Made by a program: the position numbers and the translations under genes | Shown here: positions 1,753-55,189 of the stretch, piece after piece | Layout: every line of letters begins with the position of its first letter | Position numbering within the stretch: position 1 is the stretch's first letter | The notes under the pieces: generated by a model | What the model was told of the DNA's origin: nothing | The model's database searches: none | The model's input: only the letters and a program-made list of their open reading frames with translations | Source: Chloroflexota bacterium | Lineage (GTDB): Bacteria > Chloroflexota > Dehalococcoidia > JACPQK01 | DNA length: 64,000 nt | Assembly (NCBI GenBank): GCA_016190505.1 | Contig: JACPQM010000043.1 | Span: 9,188 to 73,187 of the forward strand | Direction: 5' to 3'

Positions 1753-1775
1753 GAGCGTCTAGTAAGCGGTCTCCA

Positions 1776-2231: not shown

Positions 2232-2310
2232 GCTTTGCGCCTACTCGGCCATCAGGGTGTTCCCACAACGTGCCCAACCAGGAGTATCGCAAGTGCTGAA
2301 AGAAGAGACC

Positions 2311-4551: not shown

Positions 4552-4552
4552 C

Positions 4553-5734
4553 GTGACCAAGGCTCTGGAAGGCATCACTGTCCTGGAGGTGGCCTCCTAT
4601 GTCACCGGCCCTTACGCCGGCGCACTCTTGGGCGACCTGGGGGCGGAGGTCATCAAGATCGAGTCGCCGCCCCACGGCGACCCCCACCGGGGCCATGGCC
4701 GGGACGAGGCACTCTACCACCCCAACTTCAGGGCGCTGAATCGCAACAAGAAGAGCCTCACTCTGAACCTGCGTGACCCCGAAGGCAAGCACATCCTGAT
4801 GCGTCTGATCAGGAAGGCGGACGTGCTCATCGAGAACTTCCGGCCGGGGGCCATGGACCGGCTGGGGCTGGGCTACAACGACCTGCGCCAGCTCAATCCC
4901 AGGCTCGTCTATTGCTCCATCTCCGGCTACGGGCAGAGCGGCCCGTACCGGGACAAGCCCGGATACGACACCATGGGGCAGGCCTTCAGCGGCATGCTCA
5001 GCCTGCTCACCGACGTGAGCGACCCCAAGCCTGTGGGCGTCTCCGTGTCCGACCACGTGACCGCCGTCTTTGCCGCCTACGGCATTCTGGCCGCTCTCTT
5101 GGCCCGAGAGCGGACGGGCCAGGGGCAACAGGTGGAGACTTCGTTGCTCCAGGCCACCACGTCTTTCATCGAGTCATACGCCACCAGCTACCTGAGCGAT
5201 GGCGAGGTTGCCTCCCGCGAGAGCCGTACCCGGACGGTACCCATCTGGTCCTTCGTTTGTGGTGACGGGCAGCCTCTGGTGATACACCTTTCGGCGCCGC
5301 CCAAGTTCTGGGAGGGCCTGGCCAAGGCGGTTGAGCGTCCCGATCTGATCACGGACCCCCGGTTCAAGGAGCGCCGCTTGCGCTGGGAGAATCACGCCGA
5401 GCTTACCCGCATCCTGGAGCAGGAGTTCCGCAAGAAGCCGCGGGACTACTGGCTCAAAGCTCTGGAAGAGCAAGACGTGCCCAGCGCCCCGATCTACACC
5501 ATAGACCAGGTGTTCCAGGACCCCCAGGTCAAGCACCTGGGCATCCCGGTAGAGGTGAAACATCCCAAGATGGGGCCCAACCGGTTTGTGGGCAGCGCCG
5601 TTAACCTCTCGGGCACGCCGGCTGTGATGGCCCTGGCGGCGCCGATGGTGGGCGAACATACCGAGGAGATTCTCGGTAGCCTGGACTGCACGCCGGAAGC
5701 CATCAAGGCCCTCCGGGCGAAGGGCGCTGTCTAG
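4553..5734 (+). CDS. family III CoA-transferase (CaiB/BaiF/formyl-CoA transferase-like)
   Basis: GTG at 4553 follows a GGGGG SD and gives the typical N-terminus MTKALEGITVLEV…GPYAG. An alternative in-frame GTG at 4535 overlaps the upstream stop. Conserved family III core. Confidence 0.85.
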   Translation: MTKALEGITVLEVASYVTGPYAGALLGDLGAEVIKIESPPHGDPHRGHGRDEALYHPNFRALNRNKKSLTLNLRDPEGKHILMRLIRKADVLIENFRPGAMDRLGLGYNDLRQLNPRLVYCSISGYGQSGPYRDKPGYDTMGQAFSGMLSLLTDVSDPKPVGVSVSDHVTAVFAAYGILAALLARERTGQGQQVETSLLQATTSFIESYATSYLSDGEVASRESRTRTVPIWSFVCGDGQPLVIHLSAPPKFWEGLAKAVERPDLITDPRFKERRLRWENHAELTRILEQEFRKKPRDYWLKALEEQDVPSAPIYTIDQVFQDPQVKHLGIPVEVKHPKMGPNRFVGSAVNLSGTPAVMALAAPMVGEHTEEILGSLDCTPEAIKALRAKGAV

Positions 5735-8018: not shown

Positions 8019-8444
8019 GACCCAATGTAGAGCCATGAACCGCGTTGTTGCCCGTAGGGGCCCCGACGCGTCGGGGTGCCCGCCCCGGTGGGGTGCGGGG
8101 AACACGTTGTTCACGCCGTACGAGACGCGGCAAGGGCGAGCGGCGTTTTCGTAGCTTGAGTTCAGCAGCTTGGTTCATTGAAAGGACCCCGACGCATCGG
8201 GGGAGGAAGCAATCTAATGACGGCGCGATGGGTCCCGACATGTCGTGACTACGCTGCGCTTTCAATGAACCGACCGTCCCGTCATTGCGAGCCGCAGCGA
8301 AGCAATCTCCGGCCTGTGTGCGCATCATAAGGTTGCTTCGTCGTCCTTCGCCGGAAGGACTCCTCGCAATGACGACACATGGCTTCGTCGCTGTGCTCAT
8401 TTCAACGAAACGCGCCATCTCGGTTCATTGCTCTACATTGGGTC
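8019..8444. repeat. MITE-like element bounded by 23-bp terminal inverted repeats (gacccaatgtagagccatgaacc … ggttcattgctctacattgggtc), with internal nested palindromes
   Basis: The TIRs match at 22 of 23 positions. The interior carries the motifs ggttcattg/caatgaacc and gtcattgcgag…ctcgcaatgac. Confidence 0.45.
8281..8373. repeat. palindromic repeat unit gtcattgcgag-gcgaagcaa…ttgcttcg-ctcgcaatgac (copy 1)
   Basis: A near-identical unit occurs at ~47266-47345. Confidence 0.5.
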
Positions 8445-8948
8445 CCGATGCCTCGGGGCTGAGTACCCCGCCAGCCGCTCCCTCAGCACCTGGAGGTTCG
8501 TCACGTCTTCCCGGTTGTATTGAAGCAGCGTAGCCAGCGCTTCAGGGTCGCCGTGCCTTTGGTACCGTCGCCACAGCACCACTGCGTCCCACCCGCTGAT
8601 GCCCTGCAACTGGCGGGGAATGCCCAGTTGCTGCTCCACCGCCTTGAAACCGCCCTTCAGGTTGCAGCGCCAGCAGTCGTACATCAGGTCATGGTGGCCG
8701 GCGACAGTCTCCAGGTCAATGCCCAGGGAGCCATGGATGAAGGGCAGGTCAAACCGGCTGCCGTTGTAGGTATAAACCGTCTGCACATCACGCAATGCCT
8801 GAAGCAGGCTATGCCTGGTGACCTCTCTGCCCACCAGTTGCACCAGCCTGCTGTCACTGCCATTGACCAGGTAGATGCCGATGACGGTTATCTCCGCATA
8901 AGAGCAGGACAGTCCAGTGGTCTCGATGTCAAGGTAAGCGTCTGCCAA
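8433..8948 (-). CDS. RNase-H-like 3'-5' exonuclease domain protein (YprB/DEDD-like)
   Basis: DIETTGL acidic motif near the N-terminus plus YNGSRFD…H-DLMYD motifs. Low-GC segment. 2-nt gap to the upstream GIY-YIG gene. The last 4 codons and the stop (8433-8444) lie inside a repeat-element terminal inverted repeat. Confidence 0.6.
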   Translation of the reverse strand: MADAYLDIETTGLSCSYAEITVIGIYLVNGSDSRLVQLVGREVTRHSLLQALRDVQTVYTYNGSRFDLPFIHGSLGIDLETVAGHHDLMYDCWRCNLKGGFKAVEQQLGIPRQLQGISGWDAVVLWRRYQRHGDPEALATLLQYNREDVTNLQVLRERLAGYSAPRHRDPM

Positions 8949-8950
8949 GA

Positions 8951-9541
8951 CTAATCTCGTCCTTCGAAAGAGCTGGTGAAGTGACCCAAATTGGTATTGT
9001 ATGTTAGATTGCTAACGGTACGCAACAGCAAAGCTTCGAGATTGGTCCTTAAATCCTTGTCATCTACTCTGTAAAGCGAATAATACATGGCCAGATCGCG
9101 GATTTTGGGCTTGTCTTTGGCCAGAGCAGGGCCGACGCGAATTGGAACTGGAACCCGCCGGCCAAGTGTTTGCGACACTTCCACACGGAAGTTCTGTGCT
9201 TGCCCAATGTAAAGGGCGTTCCCGGCGGAGTCGTAGATCAAGTAGATCCCCGCACAATCTGGTATTCGTGAATTACTATCAGGTATTGGACATATCTCGC
9301 AGACCGCCTGCACTGTGTAGCCAAACCTCCGTCGGGTTAGGCTCTGGAGGCAACCTAACAACGCCTTTTTTTGCGGAACCTTCTTGCCGCGGAGGTAATC
9401 GCTCATATTGGGTAGTTCCTGGCCACAGTCGTGTGCGAAATCACTCATGGTCTTGCTCTTGTAGCCCGCAAGATCGCGTAGCACCTTCAAGAATTGAACG
9501 TTCGGATCGTCTGCCTTGGGAAGGTCTGTCTTGATTGCCAT
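8951..9541 (-). CDS. XRE-type HTH + GIY-YIG nuclease domain protein
   Basis: C-terminal half GIYLIYDSAGNALYIGQAQNFRVE… is a GIY-YIG core. The N-terminal region is helix-turn-helix-like (…MSDFAHDCGQELPNMSDYLRGKKVP…). Markedly lower GC than flanks. Confidence 0.7.
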   Translation of the reverse strand: MAIKTDLPKADDPNVQFLKVLRDLAGYKSKTMSDFAHDCGQELPNMSDYLRGKKVPQKKALLGCLQSLTRRRFGYTVQAVCEICPIPDSNSRIPDCAGIYLIYDSAGNALYIGQAQNFRVEVSQTLGRRVPVPIRVGPALAKDKPKIRDLAMYYSLYRVDDKDLRTNLEALLLRTVSNLTYNTNLGHFTSSFEGRD

Positions 9542-18884: not shown

Positions 18885-20405
18885 ATGTCTGACCAATGGC
18901 AGCATGAGACCGACGTGCTGGTCGCCGGCTACGGCGTAGCCGGCGCGGTGACCGCGATTGTGGCCCACGACGCCGGGGCACAGGTGCTCCTGCTGGAAAA
19001 GGGGAAGTACCCGGGGGGCTGCTCCGTGCTGGCAGGTGGGGGCATAAACTGCTGCGGCGATGTCGAAGCCGGTGTGGCCTACCTGCGCACCCTGTCCGGC
19101 GGGCGCGTGCCCGACGAGCTTATTCGTCCCTTTGCCGAAGGGCTGGCCGGCAACGAGGCCTTCATCCGCCGGCTGGCTGAGGTGGATGGTGCCCGCATCT
19201 CCCTCAACAAGACCTACCACGGTCAGCCGGTCGGCGTCTATCCCTTCCCGGGCCGGGAGGCGTGGTACTACGTCAGGATACTACAGGTCCCCGGGTTTAG
19301 TGGTTTCCCCTATGTGCAGGGGGCCAGCACTCGGGGCACCGCCATGTTCAAGCTGGTCATGGACAACGTGGAGGCCCGTGGCATACCGGTGTGGCTGGAG
19401 GCACCCGCTCGCCGCCTGGTAACGGACCACGGTAGCGTTGTCGGCGCGATAGTAGAAAGAGATGGCCGCGAGGTAAGGGTACGGGCCAGACGGGCGGTGG
19501 TGCTGGCCACCGGGGGCTTCGAGCAGAACGAATGGATGCGGCTCCAGTTCCTCCAGGGCAAGCCGTTTCACTCCATGGCGCCAGTCACGCATACGGGAGA
19601 TGGTATTGCCCTGTCCCAGAAGGCGGGGGCGGCCCTGTGGCACATGTGGCTGGTGCACGGTTCGTATGGTTTCAAGTTCCCGGAGTTTCCCATCGCCTTC
19701 CGGCACCCCTTCGGGGGGCATCGTAACCCCAACCGCCGCATGCCCTGGATCGTGGTGGACCGCGTGGGCCGGCGCTACATGAACGAGTACCATCCCGCCT
19801 CGGCCGACACCAACCACCGGCCCATGGAGGTCTTCGATCCAGACCTTCCCGGCTACCCGCGCATCCCTTCCTTCATGGTCTTTGACGACGTGGGCAGGCA
19901 GCTTGGGCCTATCGGCGACCCCATCGCTTTTGAGCCTTACATCTACGAGTGGAGCAAGGACAACAGCAAGGAGTTGGACAAGGGCTGGATAGTCGCCGCC
20001 GGTACGATCAGCGACCTTGCCCACAAGCTGAAGGAGGTGCCGGAGAACGGCGGTCTGATGGCGCCAGAGGTGCTCGATACCAGCGTCGCCTCTTGGAACC
20101 GGCAGGTCGAGGCCCGGCGCGACCCGCTGCTGCGGCCGCCGGGGACCATGATGCCTATCGCCACGCCGCCCTTCTACGCGGCCACCGTGTGGCCCATCAT
20201 AAGCAACACCCAGGGTGGCCCGCAGCACAACGAAAGACAGCAGGTGCTGGATGCCTTCGGCCAGCCCATCCCTCGCTTATATGCCGTGGGGGAGCTGGGC
20301 TCTTTCTTCGGGCACCTCTACGAGCAGGCCAGCAACCTGGGGGAGTGCTTTTCCTCCGGGCGCATCGCGGCCAAATACGCGGTGCAGGAGCCGCCGTTGC
20401 CATAG
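18885..20405 (+). CDS. FAD-dependent flavoprotein oxidoreductase (FAD_binding_2; fumarate-reductase/3-ketosteroid-dehydrogenase-like)
   Basis: AGGAGAGAG SD before ATG 18885. Dinucleotide fold DVLVAGYGVAGAVTA…LLLEKG. A C-terminal FAD-closing motif is present. Confidence 0.8.
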   Translation: MSDQWQHETDVLVAGYGVAGAVTAIVAHDAGAQVLLLEKGKYPGGCSVLAGGGINCCGDVEAGVAYLRTLSGGRVPDELIRPFAEGLAGNEAFIRRLAEVDGARISLNKTYHGQPVGVYPFPGREAWYYVRILQVPGFSGFPYVQGASTRGTAMFKLVMDNVEARGIPVWLEAPARRLVTDHGSVVGAIVERDGREVRVRARRAVVLATGGFEQNEWMRLQFLQGKPFHSMAPVTHTGDGIALSQKAGAALWHMWLVHGSYGFKFPEFPIAFRHPFGGHRNPNRRMPWIVVDRVGRRYMNEYHPASADTNHRPMEVFDPDLPGYPRIPSFMVFDDVGRQLGPIGDPIAFEPYIYEWSKDNSKELDKGWIVAAGTISDLAHKLKEVPENGGLMAPEVLDTSVASWNRQVEARRDPLLRPPGTMMPIATPPFYAATVWPIISNTQGGPQHNERQQVLDAFGQPIPRLYAVGELGSFFGHLYEQASNLGECFSSGRIAAKYAVQEPPLP

Positions 20406-20816: not shown

Positions 20817-23624
20817 CTACTCACCTGCCTCAAACTCCAACCCCAGTTGTCTGGCGGCCTCGCGCATGGTCTTGAGCGTCTGGTCATTCTCGTCAAGCGA
20901 CTGGTCGGCGCCGGTTTCCATCTCGAACTGGATCCCCAGGCTGAGCTTCTTGAGGTGCATACGCGCCGCCGGCCCCACAAACGCCCTGAAGATGTCCGCC
21001 CAACTCTCCTGGGGCACAGACCCTCGGATAACCAGGCGCCGGACAACGGGTTTGGTGGGCGTTGGCGGTGTTACCGGTCCTTCGACGGGCCCCGGCTGAA
21101 CACCGCCGCCACCCGTAGGTTCGCCCACGCGTGGCTGAGGGGCACCGGTGAGTGGTGGCGTCAGTGGCGCAATCTCGAATGGCGGAATCACCCAAACGCC
21201 ATCCTCGTTGGGGTCAACAAATACGGACTGCCGGCAATACTTCGCTTGAAGGTTCGAGACGGTCACGCCTCGACCGATGCCAACGAGTCCATCTTTACAT
21301 GCTTGGGCCAGGCCAGTGCTCACCGCTTCCTTTGATGCGATCATGGGCTTATCTGAGAAGCGCAGGAAGGCATCCACTGCGTCTCTGACACGGATGGCCC
21401 CCGTTTCGGGCACGAGGCCGGTATCCTTGAGGGTTACTGATCCCACGCGGGGCAGAATCCATTCCTCGTCTTCCACCAGGGTCTTCCACAGATAACCCAG
21501 GTGTTCGGGGAAGGAAGTTCGAGCATCGCTTAGCACCACAGGTTCAACCTCTTGCTTGGCAATCCTGAGTGCGATTGTGTAGGCTGGGCCGAGGGCTTCG
21601 AGCGCTGATTTGTCGGCCGCCTCGATGCGCTTCTTGAGATCGTCTTTCTGCTCGCCGTCAAGCTGGCTGCCGTAGTCGGACTGGATTGCCCTGAGGGCAG
21701 CCCGCTCGCTGTACGCCTGCCGGAGTTTGCTCAACCCTCGCGACGTGGTGGCCAGAAAGAGCAAGGTGTTTCGGTAGAGCCGGTCCTTCGCGCCGCATTT
21801 GGTGCTCAGCTCCATCACGCGGTTCTTGACTAGCACCTTGCCTGCTTCATCCTCTCCCCAGGCAAGCGACGGCGGAAGCAGTAGGAGGCAGAGGCTTCTT
21901 TGCTCAGGCAATTCGGGGTCCGGGTTAACAAGTATCCTCCAGGTGGGGCCACTGGCCCAACCTTTCTGGGATTGGGTGTTGAGCGCATCGAGTATCTCTT
22001 GATCGAAGTTCTTGCCGGCGAATTGTTGGCGGTACTGGACCAGGAGCTTGTTCAGTGTCGGCTTGGTCCCGAACCAGTACCGTTTACCCAGGCTGCCGGC
22101 CAAGGCCGTATACAGGAAGAACCCGCGGTCTTCAAGCTCCAGAAGCGCGCCGTCGTGGTAGTTCCAGTTGAGTCCGGGCCTGGAACATGCCAGCTTCAAG
22201 TCCCTGGCGGTGAAGCCCGACTTGGCCCCCTGGCCACCGAAAGAGCCGAGCAGCATCGCGGCGGCCAATCCCTCGGCGATGCGCTCCCGGCGATAGTCCC
22301 CGCCGCGCTCCTCGTCCAGGGCGGCCGCCGTCGATTTCTCGCCCAGGACATCGGCGGCCACCACCGTCTGGTAAGCCGGCCCCCACAACCGGGTCAGCGC
22401 CGCCTGCATAGCGTCCACCGACCAACGAATATGGCATGGTTGAATCAACGGTTGCGATTCGGTGTAGGTATCCCGATGTTTCCAGAGATCGCCGACAACG
22501 CTGGCCAATAGCCTCAGCACGCCGCGAGTCCTCTGGAAGTCCGGGTGGCTGCCCCAGCGCATGTAGAGAGCATCGATCAGCGCCGGGTGAAACGGATAGC
22601 AGCGCTCGATCTGGTCCCGGTAAGTGGTCTTCGCTGCCTCAGCGGGGACCTCGCCGGAATGGGCAGCGTAGGTGGCCTGGTACTCGGTCGCAACCTTGCG
22701 AGGGTAGTCCTTGTCTCCGTTCGAGACGGACTCAAAAAGGCGGCTTCGCACCACGGCGTAGATTTCATCGTCAGCTACCGGCCTCACATCCGCGCCCAAC
22801 CGCTGGAACCGCTTCTCCAGTGTGATGAACGCCTCTTGCCCCTTCTCACTCTGGGCAACCTCGAACTTGCTGGCCGGGAGAGTGGCAACGACGACCGCTC
22901 CGGGGACCTGTTGCACCGCTTCCGTGAGTTGCTGAATGAACGAGATCGTTTGATCGGCAAGGGTGGTGTCTCCGACCGGGACGGCGGCAGCGCCGACGCA
23001 GTAGTCGGCCAGCTCGTCCAGCAAGATAAGACACGGCGACGCCGTTCGCAGGACCTCCACGAACAGACCATGTGGAACGCGCTGCGTCTCATCGTTGGCG
23101 CGGACCTTCTCGTAAAGAGCCTTGCCGCCCAGTTGGAGAGCTAGCTCGCCCCACAGGGTGTGGGTATGCACTCCTTCCGGCGTCTTCCGGCCTTGAGTGG
23201 CGTCACAGCTAGCATTGGTGAACACGGCCACGCCGCGCACCTTGTCCGGGAAGTGGTTGTCCAGGACCCGGCGCAAGTCTTCGGAAGCCGGCGACCCCTT
23301 GAGAAGTCCAGCGTGCTTCGCCAGATGGTAGAGCGCCACCAGCGTATGAGTCTTGCCGCCGCCGAAAGCGGTTTGAAGGCTGATGATGCGGTCGCCCGCC
23401 TCTCCGCCCTGAAGGGCCACCGAGACACGCTTCAGAACGGTGGCAAGCCCAACGGTCATGTAGGTCTTGCGGAAGAACTCCTCCGGGTTGAGGTAGACTT
23501 CGGGCGCCGTACCCTGGACGACAGCCCAGATGTTCGCCGCGAAGACCGCTTCCTCAAGCCTGCCGGCGCGGATGTCCTCGTGCGGGATGGCCACGGCGTA
23601 CCAGGGTTTCAAGGTTTCGGCCAT
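20817..23624 (-). CDS. DUF499-type AAA+ ATPase (BrxC/PglY-like N-terminal region)
   Basis: N-terminus …LKPWYAVAIPHEDIRAGRLEEAVFAANIW… Walker A (GGGKTHT) and Walker B (CLILLDELADY). GGAGGGG SD 5 nt before the ATG. 22-nt gap after the methyltransferase gene. Confidence 0.8.
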   Translation of the reverse strand: MAETLKPWYAVAIPHEDIRAGRLEEAVFAANIWAVVQGTAPEVYLNPEEFFRKTYMTVGLATVLKRVSVALQGGEAGDRIISLQTAFGGGKTHTLVALYHLAKHAGLLKGSPASEDLRRVLDNHFPDKVRGVAVFTNASCDATQGRKTPEGVHTHTLWGELALQLGGKALYEKVRANDETQRVPHGLFVEVLRTASPCLILLDELADYCVGAAAVPVGDTTLADQTISFIQQLTEAVQQVPGAVVVATLPASKFEVAQSEKGQEAFITLEKRFQRLGADVRPVADDEIYAVVRSRLFESVSNGDKDYPRKVATEYQATYAAHSGEVPAEAAKTTYRDQIERCYPFHPALIDALYMRWGSHPDFQRTRGVLRLLASVVGDLWKHRDTYTESQPLIQPCHIRWSVDAMQAALTRLWGPAYQTVVAADVLGEKSTAAALDEERGGDYRRERIAEGLAAAMLLGSFGGQGAKSGFTARDLKLACSRPGLNWNYHDGALLELEDRGFFLYTALAGSLGKRYWFGTKPTLNKLLVQYRQQFAGKNFDQEILDALNTQSQKGWASGPTWRILVNPDPELPEQRSLCLLLLPPSLAWGEDEAGKVLVKNRVMELSTKCGAKDRLYRNTLLFLATTSRGLSKLRQAYSERAALRAIQSDYGSQLDGEQKDDLKKRIEAADKSALEALGPAYTIALRIAKQEVEPVVLSDARTSFPEHLGYLWKTLVEDEEWILPRVGSVTLKDTGLVPETGAIRVRDAVDAFLRFSDKPMIASKEAVSTGLAQACKDGLVGIGRGVTVSNLQAKYCRQSVFVDPNEDGVWVIPPFEIAPLTPPLTGAPQPRVGEPTGGGGVQPGPVEGPVTPPTPTKPVVRRLVIRGSVPQESWADIFRAFVGPAARMHLKKLSLGIQFEMETGADQSLDENDQTLKTMREAARQLGLEFEAGE

Positions 23625-23646
23625 TGTCCCCTCCTATGGCGGTACA

Positions 23647-26616
23647 TCAGAACAGCCGGCCATCGGTCCGATTCCGCATGGCTTCAACCCGCAGAGTCTG
23701 ACGCTCGCCCAGGATGGCATTGACCAGTTTCCAGTCCTCGATGTCATGCGGCAGCACTTCAAAAAGCGCCTGGGCTAGCTTCCAGAACGGGCCATCCTCC
23801 AGGAGATCGCGCTCTGCGAGATACTTGACCAGTTCCGGCCTGTTCTCTTGTTTCCATAGCAATATGGAACGATGGAGGGAATCTATAAGTGGCGGATTCG
23901 GGTCAATCCCGAGGCCCCGGCGCTCCGCGCGGTCTTTGAGGAGCGCCAGGCGGCACGTGGACCCGTCCACCACGAATATGCCGTGTCCCCTGGCCACCTC
24001 CATCGCGCTCTCGGCGTCGCCGCCGATCTGGACTACCAGCCGGGCATCGTCCCAGGCCTGCTCGCCGACTCCGTAAAGGTTGGCCCACACGAAATAGAGG
24101 CGCGAGAGATTGTCGCCTTCAAACTGACCCGCGATGGCTTTCAGAGCAGACTCGCGCACAAGCGCCAGCAACTCTGGAACGCCGACGGCAGTCCCATCGG
24201 CGCGCTCCACGCGCTCGTAGCGACCAAAGACGCCGACGGCCGGACCATAGCAGGCCACGATCAAATCCACGCCGCGCAACCCGTACCCAAAGAAGCGATG
24301 CACGCTCTTTGCGACTACATCATCGAGCTCTCGACGCACGTCACGGAACGATGCCGCCGCACCCACTTCACGTGGGCGGCAGACAACGGTGATAGAAGAA
24401 GCCAGTGCAGAACCAGCGAGCGCAACAGCCCGGTTACCGCGTTCAGTATCAATGGGGAAGCTTGCCGTTATGTTCAAACCAGCCTCGAAGAGAGCTTTGA
24501 TGAGCGCTGTCCAAGCTTCAGTAGATTGGTGAGCGAACATAACCGCCAGCACGCCGTTAGACTTGCACAACCGCTTCGCTTCGGCAAAGCAAGCGGCCAA
24601 CTTTGAAGTGCAATGAACCCTTGCTCGTTCGGCATCACCGCCGTGCCGATGCTTGAGAGCCGTTGCTTCATCGTTCTTCGGGGTGAGGGGCGTCGAGAAA
24701 ACCTCAGGGAGTTGGTCGCCCAGTCCACGCTTGAGCCACACGTAGAAAAAGTCGGAAAGATCGGCATAGGCAATGGCATCGAAGTAAGGCGGATCAGTGA
24801 CAACGGCATCTGTTTGGCCTTTCGGGAACGACAATCGCCCGCTGTCGCCGTTGAAAACACAACACTCTGGAGATGAGACACCAGGAGGCAACGACTCGTG
24901 TATGAGCACACGCAGTATCCAGTCGAGTTGGCTTAATCCGCCGCCCGTTGCCTCGTTGAATGGATTGACCTCTGCATAGTCCCATATTATTGGGATGGAT
25001 TGTTTAGTGAAAACATGACCGAAGAACTCGCCGCCAGGAGTCCATGTGGCGAAACTCGCCAAGTAGTCAGCGGACTTGCTCGCCCACAAACCCAAGTACG
25101 CTGAAATCGCTTTCCGATATTCAGAGTCTTTCTCGCGCTCTTCTAAGTTGGTGAGGAAACAATGTAAACACGCCATAAGGGTTTGCATGGTCAGCAGTTG
25201 GCGAGGGTTGAACAGGGATCCCCACGTCTTCAGTCCGTAGAGGTGAACGCGGATGCCCGTAGAGTTGGAAATGCCCTCACCGTCACTCCCGGTGATTTCG
25301 GGCAGAATGAGTTCCTTTGGCCGCTGGATCGATTCCGCCATTCTCCTGGCTTTCTCAAACGCTTCCAGGTCGGTAGCCTCTACCGGGCGGTAGTCCTTTC
25401 CCTGTGGGGTATCTGTTATGACCGCAACCATCCGTTCGCCCATCTTTCCTTCCAGACCCGCACGGCGTAAATCATCAACTGGCGTCGTCTGCTGGCAAAT
25501 TGGACAACGCACGCTGCCGCGTCCCTTCTCTATCATCGTGCCAGCAGTTTCCTTGATGTCGAGGTTCTTCGCAATCCCGAAGACCACTTCTTTGCCATTC
25601 CGCTCCATCGTCAGCGCCACGCGCTTTTTGTCCTTGTTGCACACAAGGAGACTGCGCAGCAACGGAATCTCGGCGCGGCAGGTCGGGTTGGAGCAAGGCG
25701 CAGTACGTGCCCACAAATAGCCCACCACCGGCTTGCCATCCTTCCCCGGCGGATACAGATGCCCAATTCTCTCTTTGGCTTTCGCCAGAATCCACTTCGC
25801 CCAATAGTCCACGTCATGGGCAAGCACGTTGGCAACGTCAACCTCGCGCTCGACCTTCCTGCCAAACTCCTCGACCGTTGTCTTTCGGATGCCGGGCTTG
25901 CCGTACTTCTGAGGGAACTCGCAGGTGGCCCGCAGAATGAGGTAGGCCACCGGGTTGTAGTCGTTTGCTATGGCCTGGCAGCCCAAGCGTCCGGCTTCCA
26001 GAGGGATCGCGCCGCCGCCGGCGAACGGGTCGAGCACCACCGGTGTTTTGCCGCCATTCGCAATATGCACAAGTTCGCGCGCTATGCGAAGAATCTCTCG
26101 CCCCTGTTTGTTCTCAGGGTTGCTGGTCTCCCACTTGACCAGGCAGCGGTCGTCCAGAACCTCGTTCGGCGGCGGCTCTTTCACCTCGCCGTTCTGCGCC
26201 ACCGCCTGCCCCGAATCGAAGGCGATTTGTTGCGGCGACCATTTGGCGATGAAGGTGAGCAGGCGATTACGGGGCGTATCGAGGATGTTCTTATAAGGAC
26301 GGTACGGGTCAGCGTCGTTGCGCGGTTTGTTGTTTTGCAGGTACGACTTCAGAATGGTCGGTATGCTGTCTTTCAGCAGGCGATTGACCGCGTCGCGGAA
26401 TTCGGCGGGACAGCGGGGGTCATCCGGGTCCGGCACCAGCGAGGCGAAGACCACAGCGCGGGACGCTGCCAGGGGTCGCCGCGCCCACCACAGGTGCAGC
26501 GTGGAGATGTGCCCGTGCCGCAACGACTTGTCTCTCACGCTTTCGACAGAAATCTCTCGAATGGGGAGAGCCACCTCGATGAGGCGCGGACAGAAGTCGT
26601 TGGTTTTGTCGCTCAT
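23647..26616 (-). CDS. DUF1156-type N6-adenine DNA methyltransferase (Zn-ribbon-containing)
   Basis: Signature HISTLHLWWARRPLAASRAV. Motif I is DPFAGGGAIPLEAG and motif IV is TDPPY. The ATG overlaps the helicase stop by 1 nt (TAATG). Confidence 0.85.
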   Translation of the reverse strand: MSDKTNDFCPRLIEVALPIREISVESVRDKSLRHGHISTLHLWWARRPLAASRAVVFASLVPDPDDPRCPAEFRDAVNRLLKDSIPTILKSYLQNNKPRNDADPYRPYKNILDTPRNRLLTFIAKWSPQQIAFDSGQAVAQNGEVKEPPPNEVLDDRCLVKWETSNPENKQGREILRIARELVHIANGGKTPVVLDPFAGGGAIPLEAGRLGCQAIANDYNPVAYLILRATCEFPQKYGKPGIRKTTVEEFGRKVEREVDVANVLAHDVDYWAKWILAKAKERIGHLYPPGKDGKPVVGYLWARTAPCSNPTCRAEIPLLRSLLVCNKDKKRVALTMERNGKEVVFGIAKNLDIKETAGTMIEKGRGSVRCPICQQTTPVDDLRRAGLEGKMGERMVAVITDTPQGKDYRPVEATDLEAFEKARRMAESIQRPKELILPEITGSDGEGISNSTGIRVHLYGLKTWGSLFNPRQLLTMQTLMACLHCFLTNLEEREKDSEYRKAISAYLGLWASKSADYLASFATWTPGGEFFGHVFTKQSIPIIWDYAEVNPFNEATGGGLSQLDWILRVLIHESLPPGVSSPECCVFNGDSGRLSFPKGQTDAVVTDPPYFDAIAYADLSDFFYVWLKRGLGDQLPEVFSTPLTPKNDEATALKHRHGGDAERARVHCTSKLAACFAEAKRLCKSNGVLAVMFAHQSTEAWTALIKALFEAGLNITASFPIDTERGNRAVALAGSALASSITVVCRPREVGAAASFRDVRRELDDVVAKSVHRFFGYGLRGVDLIVACYGPAVGVFGRYERVERADGTAVGVPELLALVRESALKAIAGQFEGDNLSRLYFVWANLYGVGEQAWDDARLVVQIGGDAESAMEVARGHGIFVVDGSTCRLALLKDRAERRGLGIDPNPPLIDSLHRSILLWKQENRPELVKYLAERDLLEDGPFWKLAQALFEVLPHDIEDWKLVNAILGERQTLRVEAMRNRTDGRLF

Positions 26617-29600
26617 TAGTCCTCTTTACTACCGTCAAGCTGAAGCTCGGTCCCCTGGCTCGCCCAGTCGGATTCGTCTACCAAGAACTGCACGTTGCGG
26701 TAGAGCATCTCCGGGTTGAGGTTAGGGATGGGGTCCTGGATCATCCGAAGTCTTGGCCGCTCATCCTTGCAGAGGGTCACGATATAGAGCCAGCCGCGCG
26801 ACTCCAGTTGTTCCAGCTTGTCCTTCTCCGGCCCGGTCAACACAATGGCGCCCGACTGTGCCCGCCCTTTGACCTCAATGAAGCGCTTTTCCCCCGCAGG
26901 CCCTTCGGACCGGATGTCGTAATGCTCGCCATCCTTGTGTACGTCAACCGGCTTCCATCCCCTCCCGCGCTCGTAGCGCATGACGCAATCCATCGCTATC
27001 TGCTCGACTTCATCGTCGCGGCGCATGGGGAACCCGCGTGATGGACCGGGACCCTCGCCCTCCACAATGGCCTCTTGAGCGGGGATGGTTACGGCCTGGG
27101 TGATGATGTCGGGGAGATTGGCCGTGAGATTCAACATCAAGTCCAGTTCCTTCATCCGCTCGACTTTGCGCGTCTTGAGGTCAACGATGCGTTTCTGAAG
27201 CCGTTCCCGTTCCTCGGCGTTGATTTCACCAAACAGGCTGGCGTGTTGTAGCTCATTGAGGTGGCCCTGAAGTTCAAGGATCAAGTCAGTGAACGCTGTG
27301 TTGAGATACTCACGCCGGACATTGCATTCTTCTTGTCTGGCCGCACTCGTTTGGCCGAGTTGCTTCTCCGTGACCGTCTCGTAGGCCCAGGCTTGCACCT
27401 CCTCGGCAGAGTGGGCCTGGGCGCCAGGCGTATCAGGTTGTTGAATCGGAGGAATGCAGTTAAGGAGATAGGAGGGGGAAGTTATTCGCAGCCCCATGTG
27501 GTCCGCCGCCACAACTGCCAGGCGTTCGTGAGCCAGGCGAGTGCGCGATTCATTCCGGCCATCCTGAATCGTTGAACGCACGAGCCAGACGTGCTGGGGC
27601 GTCGCGATGTTTGGATCGACCAGCACAGCGCCCCTGGCGAATGCGTGGCGCGCCTCCCGAATCGCCCATCCTATGACGGTATCGAAAAGAACGTGCCCTG
27701 GCCCCAGGAGCTTTGTGCGGTCGGGAACGCGGACCTTGCTGGCCACGCTCACCAGTTGCTTGTCAAAGACAAAGGGGGTGTCATAGTGGTCGGAAATCGG
27801 CGTCCTTCGCTCCTTTGCCAGGTCTAATAGAGCAACCGGCGTCCGGCCAAGGTTCCACACCGGGAAATGCTGGTCTTGTTGGATAGTTCCCCCACAGGCC
27901 ACCCAGGCTTTCTCAAAGAAACGTTGGACAAAGAGGGGTTGCAGCTTTCGTTCGTCCGAGGCATCTCGTAGCTCGCGAGCCGCCCGAAGGTTGAGATGTG
28001 ATGCCAGGGAAGTCTTCTTCTGAAGCGCTACGAGTTTCTCCGCTTTCTCTTGGCTGGCCAGGATCAGCGCCTCTGTGGTCTCTTCCTCTGCCCCCGTTGC
28101 ATCCTCAGAATCAATAGCCCTTTCCATCAGACTGACCAGGGGCACGCCTTCCAGCCAGTCGTCGATGACATCATAGACCCGGTCTGAACCCATCTGGTCC
28201 CGCATGACATCCAACTTCGAGAGTACGTGTCGCAGAACGGAGCCTTCTCTGGTGTTCTGCGCGACCAGGTTGTAGACCCACACATCATCATTCTGGCCGT
28301 AGCGGTGGACACGCCCCATGCGCTGCTCCAGGCGGTTTGGATTCCAGGGTATGTCCCAATTGATCAGGAAGCGGCAGAACTGAAGGTTGATACCCTCGCC
28401 CGCGGCGTCGGTGGCCACCATGATCTTGGCTCGGGTCCTGAACTCACGCTGGGCGCGCTTGCGCTCGTCCACATCCATGCTCCCATGTATGGCAGCGACG
28501 GAGTAGCCCATATCTTCCAGCCGCTTGGCCAGGTTGTCGAGCGTGTCTTTGTGTTCGGTGAAGATGAGCAGCTTTTCGTCCTCGGTCCGGATCACTTCGG
28601 AGGTGTCGAGAACCTTGAGCAACTCTGTGAACTTGGCTTCCTTGTGATGCTTCAGAGTGGCCGCCAAGTTGAAGAGCCGGTCTACTTCATCGCGCTCCTC
28701 TTCGACCTTGGCCGGGTCGTCCGTCAACACTTGCCCGAAGATGCGCTTATCGATCCGGTCTCGCTCCTCTTCAGTCATGTCTTCGTATTCAGAGATGTCG
28801 CGAGGGTCTGTGGGATCGGTGTCGCCGCCGAGCAGCCTCTTCTTCTCGGCGGCGGTCTTGCGAGGGTCGCGCAGGACGACCAAGACCTCAGTTAATGCCT
28901 TCAGGCGGTTCTCCAGCGTCCGAGTTATGGCATAGATGCTGCTGGCGAGACGGCGCTGCATGACCATGAGGGTCAATTCGACATTTCGGTTCTTCTTGGC
29001 TTTCGCTTCCTTACGCTTCGAGCGGACGTATCTGGTAACCTCGTCATAGAGAATCTTCTCTTCGGGCGTCAACTCGTAGCCGAGAGTCTTGGTGTGCCGG
29101 TCTTTGAAGAGTGGCTGGTTGTCCCAATCAACCATCTCTTCTTTCAGGCGGCGTAGAAAGAAGCGATTCCTGGCCGCACTGATCGGCTTCTCGCCTTCAA
29201 AATCTTCCCCGCCGGCTTCGAACGCGGCAACTTGTTCGCGGACCCGTTTCGAGACGTGCTCATCCTTCTGGAAGAGGTCTTCATCGAGGAGCAGTAGCAG
29301 CCGCCGGAAGGTGTCTTTGCGGCCCCGGTGCGGTGTAGCTGTGAGGAATATGAGGTGGTCGGTCTTGTCAGCTAGGGCCTTGATGGCCTTATACCGTTCG
29401 CTTTCTTCGATCTTGGTTCCGTACTCATAAGCCGAGAGCTTGTGAGCCTCGTCCACGACAACCAGGTCCCACTGTGTCTCTTGCGCAGCCTTGAGGCACC
29501 CTTCGTTCCGTGCCAGGAAGTCAATGGAGATAACGAATATGCCATCCTCGTAGCGTGAGAACTGCCCGGGCTCAGCCTCAAAAGAAGGCCGGTTTACCAG

Positions 29601-30140
29601 GCGGGCATGGATACCGAATTTCTCTAGAAGCTCCTCTTCTTGCCATTGTTTAGTAAGTCCGCCGGGAGTAACGATCAACACCTTGTTAATGACGCCACGG
29701 AAAAGCAGTTCCTTCAGCAGCAGTCCTGTCATGATAGTCTTGCCCGCGCCGGTGTCGTCTGCCAGTAGAAACCTGATGCGTGGAAGTGGAAGGAGATAGT
29801 GATAGACGGCTTCCACCTGGTGGGGGAGGGGGTCTACGACGCTGGAGTTTACAGCGAAGAGGGGGTCGAACTGGTGAGCAATACGGATGCGCTCGGCCTC
29901 AGTGCCCAGCAAGAACTTCTCTGCGTCCCCGTCGTAGGTGAGTTCGGCACCGCGAATCCTCACCAGTCGGGCGAGTTCCTCATCAGACAGCGGGCGCTTC
30001 ACGACGCGCCTGGACTGGACTCCGACACCTTCAATCAGTGTCTTGCTGCCGAACGGAGCCACCCTCTGGACCTCGACCAGTTCCGAAGGCTCGAGTCCAG
30101 AAACAATATCGCCAGGAGACAAAGCGGTTGTTTCTGCCAT
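26616..30140 (-). CDS. SNF2-family helicase fused to a C-terminal PD-(D/E)xK-like nuclease domain
   Basis: Motif I is LADDTGAGKT, motif II is VVVDEAHK, motif III is TATPHRG, and motif VI is QRMGRVHRYGQ. The C-terminal ~150 aa carry D…(IEV)K (…HYDIRSEG…KRFIEVKGR…). Confidence 0.85.
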   Translation of the reverse strand: MAETTALSPGDIVSGLEPSELVEVQRVAPFGSKTLIEGVGVQSRRVVKRPLSDEELARLVRIRGAELTYDGDAEKFLLGTEAERIRIAHQFDPLFAVNSSVVDPLPHQVEAVYHYLLPLPRIRFLLADDTGAGKTIMTGLLLKELLFRGVINKVLIVTPGGLTKQWQEEELLEKFGIHARLVNRPSFEAEPGQFSRYEDGIFVISIDFLARNEGCLKAAQETQWDLVVVDEAHKLSAYEYGTKIEESERYKAIKALADKTDHLIFLTATPHRGRKDTFRRLLLLLDEDLFQKDEHVSKRVREQVAAFEAGGEDFEGEKPISAARNRFFLRRLKEEMVDWDNQPLFKDRHTKTLGYELTPEEKILYDEVTRYVRSKRKEAKAKKNRNVELTLMVMQRRLASSIYAITRTLENRLKALTEVLVVLRDPRKTAAEKKRLLGGDTDPTDPRDISEYEDMTEEERDRIDKRIFGQVLTDDPAKVEEERDEVDRLFNLAATLKHHKEAKFTELLKVLDTSEVIRTEDEKLLIFTEHKDTLDNLAKRLEDMGYSVAAIHGSMDVDERKRAQREFRTRAKIMVATDAAGEGINLQFCRFLINWDIPWNPNRLEQRMGRVHRYGQNDDVWVYNLVAQNTREGSVLRHVLSKLDVMRDQMGSDRVYDVIDDWLEGVPLVSLMERAIDSEDATGAEEETTEALILASQEKAEKLVALQKKTSLASHLNLRAARELRDASDERKLQPLFVQRFFEKAWVACGGTIQQDQHFPVWNLGRTPVALLDLAKERRTPISDHYDTPFVFDKQLVSVASKVRVPDRTKLLGPGHVLFDTVIGWAIREARHAFARGAVLVDPNIATPQHVWLVRSTIQDGRNESRTRLAHERLAVVAADHMGLRITSPSYLLNCIPPIQQPDTPGAQAHSAEEVQAWAYETVTEKQLGQTSAARQEECNVRREYLNTAFTDLILELQGHLNELQHASLFGEINAEERERLQKRIVDLKTRKVERMKELDLMLNLTANLPDIITQAVTIPAQEAIVEGEGPGPSRGFPMRRDDEVEQIAMDCVMRYERGRGWKPVDVHKDGEHYDIRSEGPAGEKRFIEVKGRAQSGAIVLTGPEKDKLEQLESRGWLYIVTLCKDERPRLRMIQDPIPNLNPEMLYRNVQFLVDESDWASQGTELQLDGSKED

Positions 30141-30212
30141 ATCCTAACCTCATCCTCCCGGCAAGACCTTTAATGCCTAGCCGCGCTGCACTGGCCCTGA
30201 TGGTCGGTTCGT

Positions 30213-30218
30213 ATTCTA
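30213..30218 (-). promoter_or_regulatory. TGcTAGAAT extended -10-like element ~70 nt upstream of the helicase start codon (minus strand)
   Basis: Reverse complement of attcta(gca) at 30213-30220. Confidence 0.25.
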
Positions 30219-30605
30219 GCACACCCAAACGTGAGCGAGACCGCCGCCTATTCAGTCGCCGACATTCAGAGCCAACTGGAACCGAGTGTTGGATGTCAGC
30301 AGCGTGGCAAGATCCACGTGTTGTGTCGGGCGTAACACAGGGTTGTCATTGGTGCAGTAGGGAACAATAAGCCAGGTTGTGCCGCCGCTGACGAGGGCTC
30401 CACCATCGCGGACAGTAAGCAGAGCTCTTGCCATCACCTTTTGGTACTCGCTGAAACCCTGAATCCGCGCCGGGGCAATTGCACCTGAGCGCAGGGCAAG
30501 GCACCGCGGCCACGGTACCATCTTCGTAGATGACTTTGCCGTGGTCGCGTCTCCCCCGTGGCGCCAACCGTGGGGACCCCTCCACAGCCGCTGCTCGGCA
30601 CCCGG

Positions 30606-31709
30606 CTACTTCTCCGGTGGGAGCGGGGCCCCCGTCCGCGCCTGGTACTCCGGGCAGTCCTCCAGTTGCTCGAAGCCGCAGGCCATGTCCACGCCCAGGA
30701 TGGGGGTCCAGTTGGGCTCCGCACAGGCCAGCCGGGCGGGCCGGCTGCCGGCATTGAAGTGCTGGACAGTGCACCCACCCGAGTTGATGGGTAGTATGAG
30801 CATGTCGCCGGGCACCCAGTCGTAGCGCTTGCCGTCCACCGTGGAGTATCCCTCTCCCTCGACCACGTAGTGGATGCGACCCCCCTGGTGTTTCTGCAAT
30901 CCGGAGCGGCTGCCCGGCGGTATGTCGTGGACCCAGAACAGGATGTGGTGCATCACCACGTCCTCCAGGTCGGGATGAACGTACCAGCGGTAGAAGCCCA
31001 TCCGGTTGCACTCGACAGGCTGGTCCTGCTCGCGGACGACCCAGCGGCTCCGGGCGATGCGCTCCCGCTGCTGGTTGCGCGTCCGGTAGAGCGAGTCGAG
31101 AAGCGTGGCGGGCCGGCCAGGCACCTCGATGTCGTAGCCGCGCAGGTAAGCCGCCTCGGGCAGGAAGTCCTTGGGGCGGTAGACCTCGTCGTTGCCGGGG
31201 CCTTTCCAGTCGGGTGAGTCGGTCTCCTGGCGGGTCTCGTAGGCCACTACCTCCATGAACGGCCAGTAGCCTATGACGAACATCCCGCAAGGGTTGCCCG
31301 GGTCCAGGTTCACGTGCTCGTGGGAGTTCTCGAAGGGAGTGACGGGCAGAATCTCCAGGTCGCCCTTCTGCCAGTCCATCCGGACCTCGTTGTTCACGGT
31401 GTATCCCCGGCCCTCCAGCACGTAGAGGATGCGGCCGCCCCCCTTGTGGGTATGCCTTCCCCTCCGAATGACCTGCTGGTTGGTGATGCTTATCTTCCAC
31501 CCGGGGGCGGCCAGCTCGTGCCAGTTCGTGTGGTTCATGTACTGCTTGCCGTAGCCGTGGCGGCTCTGCTCCCAGGGCACCTCCTCGCCCCGGATGAGGA
31601 CTCGCCCCTGCGCCCTCTGTTTGGCCCTCTCTATCCCGAACTTGTAGAGGTAGTCATTGATGTCCAACTGAGGCCCGCGCTCCTTGAGGCGCTCTACTTC
31701 CCTTTGCAT
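30606..31709 (-). CDS. bicupin dioxygenase (gentisate/1-hydroxy-2-naphthoate dioxygenase-like)
   Basis: Internal ATG at 31709 with an AAGGAG SD (MQREVERL…). Two cupin halves (…THKGGGRILYVLEGRGY… and …HQGGRIHYVVEGEGY…). Confidence 0.7.
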   Translation of the reverse strand: MQREVERLKERGPQLDINDYLYKFGIERAKQRAQGRVLIRGEEVPWEQSRHGYGKQYMNHTNWHELAAPGWKISITNQQVIRRGRHTHKGGGRILYVLEGRGYTVNNEVRMDWQKGDLEILPVTPFENSHEHVNLDPGNPCGMFVIGYWPFMEVVAYETRQETDSPDWKGPGNDEVYRPKDFLPEAAYLRGYDIEVPGRPATLLDSLYRTRNQQRERIARSRWVVREQDQPVECNRMGFYRWYVHPDLEDVVMHHILFWVHDIPPGSRSGLQKHQGGRIHYVVEGEGYSTVDGKRYDWVPGDMLILPINSGGCTVQHFNAGSRPARLACAEPNWTPILGVDMACGFEQLEDCPEYQARTGAPLPPEK

Positions 31710-45995: not shown

Positions 45996-46214
45996 ATGCC
46001 ATTCAAATTCGGCGGCTGGGAGCTAATCCTAATACTGGCCATAGTGCTTATCATCTTCGGGGCTGGCCGCTTGCCCGAGATCGGTGGCGCCATGGGGAAG
46101 GCCATCCGTTCGTTCAAGAGGTCCTCAGAGGGAGAGGATGAGCCGAAGCCGAAGGCCAAGCGGGGCAGGGCCAAGGCCAAGACCGAGGCCAAGGAGACCT
46201 CCAAGGCGAAGTAG
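45996..46214 (+). CDS. tatA: twin-arginine translocase TatA/E
   Basis: [27 protein letters not shown]…GKAIRSFK is a canonical TatA sequence, with a lysine-rich tail. Confidence 0.85.
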
Positions 46215-46250
46215 CTTCGTGGCGTGGGCTGGGCCCATGTGGCAGCATGA

Positions 46251-46280
46251 CAAGGGCACCCGAGGTGCCCTTGTGGTTTT
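46251..46280 (+). terminator. intrinsic terminator after tatA (10-bp stem plus U-rich tail)
   Basis: caagggcacc-cga-ggtgcccttg followed by tggtttt. Confidence 0.6.
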
Positions 46281-46299
46281 CCGTAGGGGGTAGCGCTGG

Positions 46300-47037
46300 T
46301 TGCGCACCGCCTGTTTCGTCGGAACGAGTGGCTGGGTCTATCCCCACTGGCGAGGCCCTTTCTATCCTCAGGGCCTGCCCCAGACCTTGTGGCTGAAGTA
46401 CTACGCTCAGCACTTCTCCACCGTCGAGCTGAACAACAGCTTCTACCGCCTGCCCTCGGAGGCCGCCTTCCAGCGCTGGAGGGACTCGACCCCGGGGGGC
46501 TTCGTGTTCACGGTCAAGGCCAGCCGCCTGATCACCCACTACAAGAAGCTGCGCAACGTGACTGAGGCTCTGGAGAACTTCCTGGCCCGGGCCCGCCTGC
46601 TTGGGCCTAAGCTTGGGCCTGTCCTCTACCAGCTCCCGCCCAACCTCAAGCGCAATCACGAGCTGCTGGACGCGTTTCTTGCCGGTCTGCCTCGGGACGT
46701 GCCCGCCGTCTTCGAGTTTCGGGAGGCATCCTGGTTCCACGACGAGACATTCTCCCTGCTGCGCCGCTACGGGGCCGGCTTCTGCATCATGGACCTGGTG
46801 GGACTGCCCTGCCCTTTTGTGGTGACCACGGACTTCGCCTACGTCCGCTTCCACGGCCCGGCGGGCTATTACACGGGCAGCTACCCAGACAGGGAGCTTG
46901 CCGGATGGGCCGATAGGATAAGGGGCATATCCCAAGACCTGTCCGCAGTCTACGTCTACTTCAACAACGACGTGGGTGGGGCGGCGGTGGCCAACGCTCG
47001 CACGCTGGGTACGATGCTGGGGAGCCGCACAACGTAG
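46300..47037 (+). CDS. DUF72 (YecE-like) family protein
   Basis: VGTSGWVYPHW…FYP…YAQHFSTVELNNSFYRLP is the DUF72 signature. TTG start. Confidence 0.75.
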   Translation: MRTACFVGTSGWVYPHWRGPFYPQGLPQTLWLKYYAQHFSTVELNNSFYRLPSEAAFQRWRDSTPGGFVFTVKASRLITHYKKLRNVTEALENFLARARLLGPKLGPVLYQLPPNLKRNHELLDAFLAGLPRDVPAVFEFREASWFHDETFSLLRRYGAGFCIMDLVGLPCPFVVTTDFAYVRFHGPAGYYTGSYPDRELAGWADRIRGISQDLSAVYVYFNNDVGGAAVANARTLGTMLGSRTT

Positions 47038-47054
47038 GGACAGACCTGTGCAGC

Positions 47055-47078
47055 CGCTTTCGCTACTTGTCGAAAGCG
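47055..47078. terminator. hairpin cgctttcg-N8-cgaaagcg after the DUF72 gene
   Basis: 8-bp perfect inverted repeat. Confidence 0.4.
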
Positions 47079-47120
47079 TTGTCATGGAACGTTGGTGCGG
47101 TCTCGAATCCACTGCGCCCG

Positions 47121-47213
47121 CTCCTTTCAATGAACCAAGCCCCCATGTCATTCTGGAGTCCCGACGCATCGGGGCGAAGAATCCGCGCCCCCTGGTCTAG
47201 CTTGGCGCCGGGG
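47121..47213. repeat. second copy of the 10905-type dispersed repeat
   Basis: Sequence similarity seen directly. Confidence 0.5.
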
Positions 47214-52844: not shown

Positions 52845-52847
52845 ATT

Positions 52848-53684: not shown

Positions 53685-53779
53685 AGGGACTTTCCTTCCC
53701 CCTCGACGGGGGAAGGTTAGGATGGGGGTGAGGCTCGCTTGTCTTTGGTTGAACGAGGCTAACTGTGGGAGGAAACGCT

Positions 53780-55173: not shown

Positions 55174-55189
55174 ACAAGAACCCCCGTGC

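Follow-up and report, generated by a model that had tools for sequence, protein, structure and literature searches.

We analysed a 64,000-nucleotide stretch of DNA from a Chloroflexota metagenome-assembled genome (MAG; GenBank assembly GCA_016190505.1, contig JACPQM010000043.1, positions 9,188 to 73,187), hereafter called the window, and found that a three-gene operon on its minus strand is a complete, compact copy of Hma, a defence system that already has a name and is also classified as Type-1 of the DUF499-centred BREX-related (BR) systems, where BREX stands for bacteriophage exclusion. The operon does not represent a new kind of system. It encodes a RapA-like Swi2/Snf2 translocase with a PD-(D/E)xK (NOV_C) nuclease at its C terminus (hmaA, 26616-30140, 1174 amino acids), a predicted N6-adenine DNA methyltransferase of the DUF1156 type (hmaB, 23647-26616, 989 amino acids), and a DUF499 ATPase that appears BrxC-like and of the AAA+/STAND type (hmaC, 20817-23624, 935 amino acids). 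We hold with good confidence that this compact Hma/Type-1 BR operon would act by a restriction-modification (R-M)-like mechanism carried by HmaB, HmaC, and HmaA and that it was probably acquired horizontally in Chloroflexota.

The three open reading frames (ORFs) run in the same direction and are uninterrupted, with zero embedded genes between them. One base is common to the helicase stop and the methyltransferase start, TAATG (GGACTAATGAGC), and the hmaB stop codon TGA is followed by a 22-nucleotide spacer (tgtaccgccataGGAGGGGaca; 23625-23646, minus strand), which carries a Shine-Dalgarno-like GGAGGGG, and then by the ATG of hmaC. A preliminary description of the operon, made from the sequence alone, had reported this tight coupling, and the ORF coordinates, the one-base overlap, and the GGAGGGG-bearing gap were all confirmed when we read them from the sequence. 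Because of the overlap and the short spacer with its ribosome-binding site, the operon would be expected to be translated as one unit. The lengths of its products are typical for the family, in which homologues measure ∼1166-1200 (HmaA), 950-1010 (HmaB), and 930-960 (HmaC) amino acids. Upstream of hmaA lies a 465-nucleotide untranslated region (30141-30605, minus strand) with no recognisable element, which we presume to be the promoter region. No sigma-70 promoter or intrinsic terminator consensus was found in either intergenic region flanking the operon, the small ORFs in these two regions had no Pfam match, and no Rfam family matched around the operon, the 465-nucleotide region included.

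All three dedicated PADLOC Hma models match the window proteins over most of their length, with E values of 1e-133 to 1e-190. PADLOC defines Hma as one HmaA, one HmaB, and one HmaC, each matching its own hidden Markov model (HMM), and this is what the operon holds, on one strand, with no pseudogene and within the limit of three embedded genes between hma genes. Hma (helicase, methylase, ATPase) was named in 2021 by Payne et al., who counted 1,638 instances across 26 phyla (PMC8565338). Payne et al. (2024) reported that 62.7% of 1,485 Hma loci have other defence genes embedded and that Hma is usually found outside defence islands (bioRxiv 10.1101/2024.01.29.577857). A 2026 study in Nucleic Acids Research reclassified the triad, present in 2,446 taxa, as Type-1 BR, traced it back to observations of Aravind (2013) and Koonin (2020), and proposed an R-M-like model for it (PMC12839542). 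Type-1 BR, as described there, consists of three genes only, with a helicase that has a Tudor domain at its N terminus and, at its C terminus, an active PD-(D/E)xK restriction endonuclease (REase) domain. We found the corresponding features in the window proteins: a DUF499 ATPase distinct from BrxC and DUF6079, an N-terminal DUF1156 domain on an N6-methyltransferase with a four-cysteine insert in its core, and a Swi2/Snf2 helicase followed by a predicted PD-(D/E)xK REase domain with intact residues. The proteins, their order, and their strand are the same as in Hma/Type-1 BR, and nothing essential differs. The window copy has no embedded genes, as in about 37% of Hma loci, and its host is a Chloroflexota MAG.

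The preliminary description had proposed an uncharacterised candidate system, a status that it tied to absence from current defence catalogues. That status is lost: the triad is catalogued as Hma in PADLOC (PMC8565338), its HmaA has been tested (PMC11232893), and the triad has been classified (PMC12839542). What the description said about the proteins themselves fared better. Pfam agrees with the assignments as SNF2 helicase-nuclease, DUF1156 methyltransferase, and DUF499 ATPase, and returned the expected DUF1156, DUF499, and SNF2 with Helicase_C matches. The suggested defence role and BREX-like character are likewise supported, by the PADLOC Hma matches, a fold match of HmaC to BrxC, and the BR literature.

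HmaA matches its PADLOC model (PDLC00659) with an E value of 1.4e-190, residues 7-1102 aligning with profile positions 7-1111 of 1176, and contains the Pfam domains SNF2-rel_dom, ResIII, Helicase_C, and NOV_C. The superfamily 2 (SF2)/Snf2 ATPase core spans residues 104-615 (28296-29831, minus strand). By direct motif search, we located motif I (GAGKT, 131-135), motif II (DEAH, 230-233), motif III (TAT, 267), and motif VI (QRMGRVHR, 606-613) in it; of the motifs I-VI that had been described as intact, IV and V are covered only through the Pfam Helicase_C match (positions 8-110 of 110, 96 bits). A sequence search of the Protein Data Bank (PDB) placed the core closest to RapA, and the AlphaFold2 (AF2) model of HmaA likewise has RapA as its best PDB match (6bog, aligned over the whole length, E 4.5e-25). 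The NOV_C/PD-(D/E)xK nuclease domain (residues 1045-1132; 26745-27008, minus strand) scores 59 bits against a Pfam cutoff of 22.1 and carries the residues D1075, E1089-V-K1091, and E1105, found by direct motif search. The AF2 model places these residues on β2, β3, and α2 of an α-β-β-β-β-α-β unit, a predicted REase-like topology. In an alignment of 51 sequences, the helicase motifs and the four nuclease residues (D1075, E1089, K1091, and E1105) are invariant.

The homologous HmaA of Halomonas meridiana (locus CTT34_13840) alone protects Escherichia coli from phage T4 about 100-fold, and this defence requires R610 of motif VI as well as the NOV_C residues D1084, E1104, K1106, and E1121 (Liu et al. 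2024; PMC11232893). In isolation, its C-terminal domain nicks supercoiled plasmid in a Mn2+-dependent manner, and the nuclease residues are required for both defence and nicking (PMC11232893). At the other end of the window HmaA, residues 12-63 (29952-30107, minus strand) form a small all-β module in the AF2 model, with five strands (12-14, 22-30, 33-40, 46-51, and 60-63) at a predicted local distance difference test score (pLDDT) of about 78-86. From this secondary-structure pattern, the module is a candidate for the Tudor-like domain that a Type-1 BR helicase should have. The HmaA model has an overall pLDDT of 66.0.

HmaB matches its two PADLOC models with E values of 4.1e-137 (PDLC00661) and 3.6e-132. 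Pfam assigns DUF1156 to residues 16-65 (80 bits), along with additional methyltransferase matches; this helical domain (26422-26571, minus strand) holds the HLWWARRP signature at 41-48. Motif I, FAGGG (198-202), and motif IV, DPPY (608-611), enclose an insert of ∼400 residues (198-611 with both motifs; 24784-26025, minus strand). The signature, motif I, and DPPY reported earlier for the 989-residue methyltransferase were thus all located by direct motif search. In a 50-homologue alignment, H41, W43, W44, A45, R46, R47, and P48 are invariant, as are FAGGG, DPPY, and four cysteines in the insert (C308, C313, C371, and C374). Variation among close relatives is highest at residues 571-593 and in other parts of the protein in or beside the insert. 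The insert is probably a target-recognition domain with a four-cysteine zinc site, to judge from this pattern of conservation; BR methyltransferases are described as having a single zinc finger inside such an insert (PMC12839542). A sequence search of the PDB found no solved relative of HmaB or of HmaC.

HmaC (PDLC00662, 5.8e-133) contains the N-terminal segment MAETLKPWYAVAIPHEDIRAG and FAANIW, together with a Walker A motif, GGGKT, at residues 88-92 (nucleotides 23349-23363), which is invariant in a 50-homologue alignment. Because the Walker A motif already lies at residue 88, HmaC is without the N-terminal HEPN fusion that is present in about 56% of Type-1 BR taxa (1,370/2,446). Its only Pfam match is DUF499 (87 bits against a cutoff of 23), and DUF6079 gave no match. 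The preliminary description had called the ATPase a DUF499 protein of the kind seen in BREX BrxC/PglY. The DUF499 assignment stands; for BrxC itself, however, DUF6079 is the best match, and the DUF499 ATPases fall into clades of their own (PMC12839542). The PADLOC BrxC model reaches only E = 0.0048 on HmaC, although BrxC is the best match at the level of fold: a Foldseek search with the AF2 model returned Acinetobacter BrxC (9zll and 9zdx, 2026 structures) as the best PDB matches, with a probability of 0.99 and an E value of 1.5e-3. The linker at 825-857 is hypervariable among close relatives, and residues 860-935 then form a conserved unit where a C-terminal RNA-recognition motif (RRM)/ferredoxin-like domain would be expected in Type-1 BR; AF2 predicts mainly two helices there, at a pLDDT of only 62-78. 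The overall pLDDT of the HmaC model is 62.6, and the low values for HmaA and HmaC are probably due to shallow alignments (51 sequences at about 70% identity).

Each protein had thousands of relatives in homologue searches. Entries 100% identical to all three window proteins are already in NCBI nr, and the next-best relatives, at 65-79% identity, come from Planctomycetota, Acidobacteriota, Bacillota, Thermoleophilia, Deltaproteobacteria, Fimbriimonadales, Elusimicrobia, and Pelomicrobium. The order hmaA-hmaB-hmaC is kept in six HmaC-homologue loci of different phyla, with differing cassettes between the genes. The Pelomicrobium locus carries SLFN/AlbA_2 plus UvrD and a DUF4258/DUF2283 pair; other embedded cassettes are DarT-Macro, an SMC-like ATPase plus GmrSD_N, and a nucleotidyltransferase-HEPN pair. 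These six loci reproduce the published embedding pattern, and the window copy is the compact form. DUF499 relatives were absent from 50,697 phage records; plasmid records gave 145, all at no more than 36% identity among those listed.

Two of the homologous loci have features of their own. In a Thermoleophilia MAG (L006; BAAHEW010000010.1, 2747-10004), a six-gene module resembling a type III CRISPR effector lies between hmaB and hmaC. It comprises Cmr1-like and Cmr6/Csm3-like proteins, Csx11 (269 bits) and Cmr4 (111 bits), both above their cutoffs, and two unannotated proteins. In the locus of the closest HmaC relative (L007; GCA_964644725.1, 2-1716; 75% identity), the helicase gene appears to be in fragments of 249, 52, and 240 amino acids, the last with NOV_C, and a DarT-Macro (DarTG-like) pair sits between these fragments and hmaB. 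Either the Hma of this locus is decaying or the assembly may be at fault.

The operon has relatives among several other systems. In Type-2 BR, the cores of the DUF499 ATPase, the DUF1156 methyltransferase, and the Snf2 helicase are homologous to those of the operon, and the same R-M-like logic presumably applies; in that type, an N-terminal HKD/phospholipase-D (PLD) nuclease on the helicase replaces the Tudor and C-terminal REase domains, and a DUF3780 gene is added (PMC12839542). Pfam found no PLD domain in the window proteins, and there is no extra gene in or beside the operon. The corresponding NCBIfam triad (DUF1156_antiphage, DUF499_antiphage, and phospholipD_antiphage) scores 176, 182, and 157 bits on the window proteins against cutoffs of 1000, 1200, and 1100. 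Type-3 BREX (BrxC, PglXI, BrxHII, PglZ, BrxA, and BrxF) and Type-3 BR, which adds PglZ and iSTAND (PMC12839542), likewise have a homologous ATPase, methyltransferase, and helicase, and the PADLOC models for BrxHII and PglXI match HmaA (1e-89) and, weakly, HmaB (1.2e-5). In contrast to window HmaA, which carries its own intact nuclease domain, the helicase of the Type-3 systems is without a nuclease fusion (for Type-3 BR, PMC12839542). Moreover, with only three genes, the operon lacks PglZ, BrxA, BrxB/BrxF (iSTAND), and BrxL, and ten flanking proteins, which have metabolic or transport Pfam domains, include no PglZ, BrxA, BrxB, BrxL, or other PADLOC family.

DISARM shares with the operon a Snf2-family helicase beside a DNA methyltransferase, and its DrmD is related to HmaA (PADLOC 3.5e-120). 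However, the DrmD equivalog model stays at 380 bits, short of its cutoff of 610, genes for DrmA (DUF1998 helicase), DrmB (DUF1998), and DrmC (PLD) are missing, and the methyltransferase belongs to the DUF1156 type. Type III and Type ISP R-M systems also combine an ATP-dependent SF2 motor, a PD-(D/E)xK nuclease, and an N6-adenine methyltransferase, and HmaA has a Pfam ResIII match. In the window operon, however, the motor is a RapA-like Snf2 protein and not Res, a third large BrxC-like ATPase is integral, and the Mod-Res architecture is absent. As had been concluded earlier, the operon is neither canonical BREX nor a type I/III R-M system; we likewise rejected its placement in Type-2 BR, Type-3 BR, or DISARM.

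Taken together, the assignment of the proteins to their families, their intact catalytic residues, and the conserved gene order described above suggest the following R-M-like mechanism. HmaB would methylate adenines at N6 in a host-specific motif, read by its ∼400-residue zinc-containing insert between motifs I and IV, and this methylation would mark self DNA. HmaC, as a BrxC-like AAA+/STAND ATPase, would bind DNA and act as a sensor and assembly factor that decides whether the DNA is foreign, perhaps licensing the response. HmaA would move on DNA as a RapA-like Swi2/Snf2 translocase using ATP, and its C-terminal PD-(D/E)xK domain would nick or cut unmarked DNA and so stop phage replication. 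For this last step, a homologous HmaA offers both anti-T4 and Mn2+-dependent nickase activity (PMC11232893). A more specific form of this mechanism, which we put forward tentatively and at somewhat less than even likelihood, treats the operon as a "mini-BREX with a real nuclease" that is minimal and self-sufficient, with HmaB methylation and HmaC jointly licensing a RapA-like translocase-nickase. The same hypothesis has already been published for the family (PMC12839542).

Several points weigh against the R-M-like reading. DNA methylation by HmaB and a need for HmaC are steps that we infer; the Halomonas HmaA is linked to window HmaA through family membership; and the structure models of HmaA and HmaC are of moderate confidence only. 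In the Halomonas study, HmaA alone sufficed against T4, T4 raised on an HmaB-overexpressing host was not protected, and hmaB or hmaC was missing from 15-19% of hmaA loci (PMC11232893). These results fit a simple R-M logic awkwardly. They could instead mean that HmaA is a stand-alone, modification-independent effector that senses infection, for example through supercoiled DNA or intermediates of phage replication, and by nicking DNA brings about dormancy or an outcome like abortive infection (Abi), with HmaB and HmaC serving as accessory regulators, range-extenders, or a cassette platform rather than as a pair that marks self and non-self. A non-canonical Abi mechanism was proposed by the authors of that study, in which HmaA was also nontoxic without HmaB (PMC11232893), and about 63-66% of Hma loci have embedded cassettes, a pattern that we saw in homologous loci as well. 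However, one HmaA and one phage make up the test set, and T4 is a poor test of methylation-based discrimination because its DNA carries glucosyl-hydroxymethylcytosine. Moreover, hmaB and hmaC accompany hmaA in more than 80% of loci, they are tightly coupled to it translationally in the window, and their S-adenosylmethionine-binding, DPPY, and Walker A motifs are invariant, which argues for selection on the enzymatic function of HmaB and HmaC. We therefore regard a stand-alone HmaA as unlikely, albeit the most serious rival to the R-M-like mechanism.

The likeness of HmaC to BrxC in modeled fold and the BrxHII and PglXI matches, which concern families linked in PMC12839542, would also suit a BREX-like exclusion in which methylation marks self and unmethylated DNA, rather than being cut, is kept from replicating by an ATPase-helicase complex. 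Against such a mechanism, the PD-(D/E)xK site of HmaA is intact and invariant, and its counterpart in the Halomonas homologue nicks DNA and is needed for defence (PMC11232893). As PglZ, BrxA, BrxB, and BrxL were also not found in the operon or its flanking genes, we consider nondegradative exclusion very improbable. In favour of a genuinely new, unnamed R-M-like system, the NCBI labels of the proteins read only DUF3883, DUF1156, and ATP-binding protein, and their scores do not reach the NCBIfam cutoffs, either for DrmD or for the antiphage triad of DUF1156, DUF499, and phospholipase-D; this proposal is already refuted by the PADLOC Hma matches and by three papers that name, test, or classify the triad, and we give it practically no credence. 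We attach equally negligible likelihood to a housekeeping role, such as a RapA-like transcription or repair remodeller accompanied by an orphan regulatory methyltransferase. RapA is the closest solved structure, and the operon sits among metabolic genes outside any defence island, but Hma loci typically lie away from other defence systems anyway (bioRxiv 10.1101/2024.01.29.577857). The triad is kept across phyla with nested defence cassettes, its distribution is patchy (PMC8565338), and a homologous HmaA has anti-phage activity (PMC11232893).

Horizontal acquisition of the operon is plausible because a near-identical architecture and 65-79% identity recur across phyla and because its GC content is lower than that of its surroundings (0.593, compared with 0.636 for the remainder of the window). 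The genes to its left encode an SBP_bac_5 binding protein, two molybdopterin oxidoreductases, and an FAD_binding_2 flavoprotein (18885-20405); those to its right encode a two-cupin (bicupin) protein (30606-31709), an ABC transporter of the branched-chain type, hydantoinase A and B, and an aminotransferase, all by Pfam. The best relatives of the flavoprotein (55-63%) are from Chloroflexi MAGs, unlike the cross-phylum relatives of the operon. The preliminary description had called the operon compositionally distinct. Its GC and its GC content at third codon positions (GC3, 0.68-0.75 against 0.80-0.87 in adjacent genes) are indeed below those of the flanks, but the difference is modest, only 0.3-1.0 standard deviations below the mean of the 35 other long window ORFs, and the transporter/hydantoinase cluster at 32-39 kb has a GC3 similar to that of the operon. 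Also counting against acquisition, no tRNA was found, no integrase occurs among the neighbours scanned, a comparison of the two boundaries for att-like repeats, direct or inverted, gave matches of only 8-9 nucleotides, no better than in shuffled sequence, and neither a genome scan with the flavoprotein nor a metagenome scan with the bicupin found an empty site. The genome scan gave relatives at 41-63% only, without synteny.

It had further been suggested that the flanking flavoprotein and bicupin genes belong to one pathway cluster. Homologues of the two are adjacent in one metagenomic locus (L014), which lends some support to a link between them, whereas in the window the genes are convergent and an empty site is wanting; insertion into a catabolic pathway cluster thus stays a suggestion. 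In L014 (Ga0082335_1000279, 1134-5482), SBP_bac_5, flavoprotein, and bicupin homologues lie side by side on one strand, the latter two genes overlapping by 8 nucleotides. We rejected this locus as an empty site, given its 57-59% identity and a gene orientation unlike that of the window. Three bicupin paralogues occur in tandem in a second locus (L012) and spread among SBP5 genes in a third (L015), which suggests that SBP5, flavoprotein, and bicupin form a recurrent, paralogue-rich catabolic module.

Elsewhere in the window, about 25 kb from Hma, a low-GC patch (54757-57624; 0.525 at 55-56 kb) encodes a ParA/AAA_31-like ATPase (55190-56080), a PemK/MazF toxin (56298-56615), an RHH_1 antitoxin (56612-56884), and a second PemK/MazF toxin (57015-57404), all on the minus strand. 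This is a separate small toxin-antitoxin and partition cluster, possibly a mobile-element remnant. An RNase_H_2-superfamily protein (8433-8948, minus strand) adjoins the lowest-GC ORF of the window (8951-9541, minus strand; GC 0.506 and GC3 0.574), whose GIY-YIG match is weak and below the Pfam cutoff. In several of the longest ORFs, including 1759-4296, 46114-47169, and 52833-54143, GC at first codon positions exceeds GC3 (e.g., 0.82 against 0.63). In a genome this rich in GC, such a pattern marks them as wrong-frame shadows of opposite-strand genes, and mechanical ORF lists for this window are therefore not to be taken for gene calls.

As a discovery, the operon carries little weight: the triad is named, has detection models and thousands of catalogued instances, and is the subject of one experimental and one detailed comparative-genomics paper. 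What it adds is a Chloroflexota MAG example of compact Hma outside any defence island. As a cassette-free, translationally coupled operon, it offers a clean construct for asking what HmaB and HmaC do and whether methylation serves as a self mark. The novelty of the mini-BREX reading would lie in such experiment and not in the window locus, and if that reading is true, reconstitution would show how BrxC-type ATPases tell modified from unmodified DNA.

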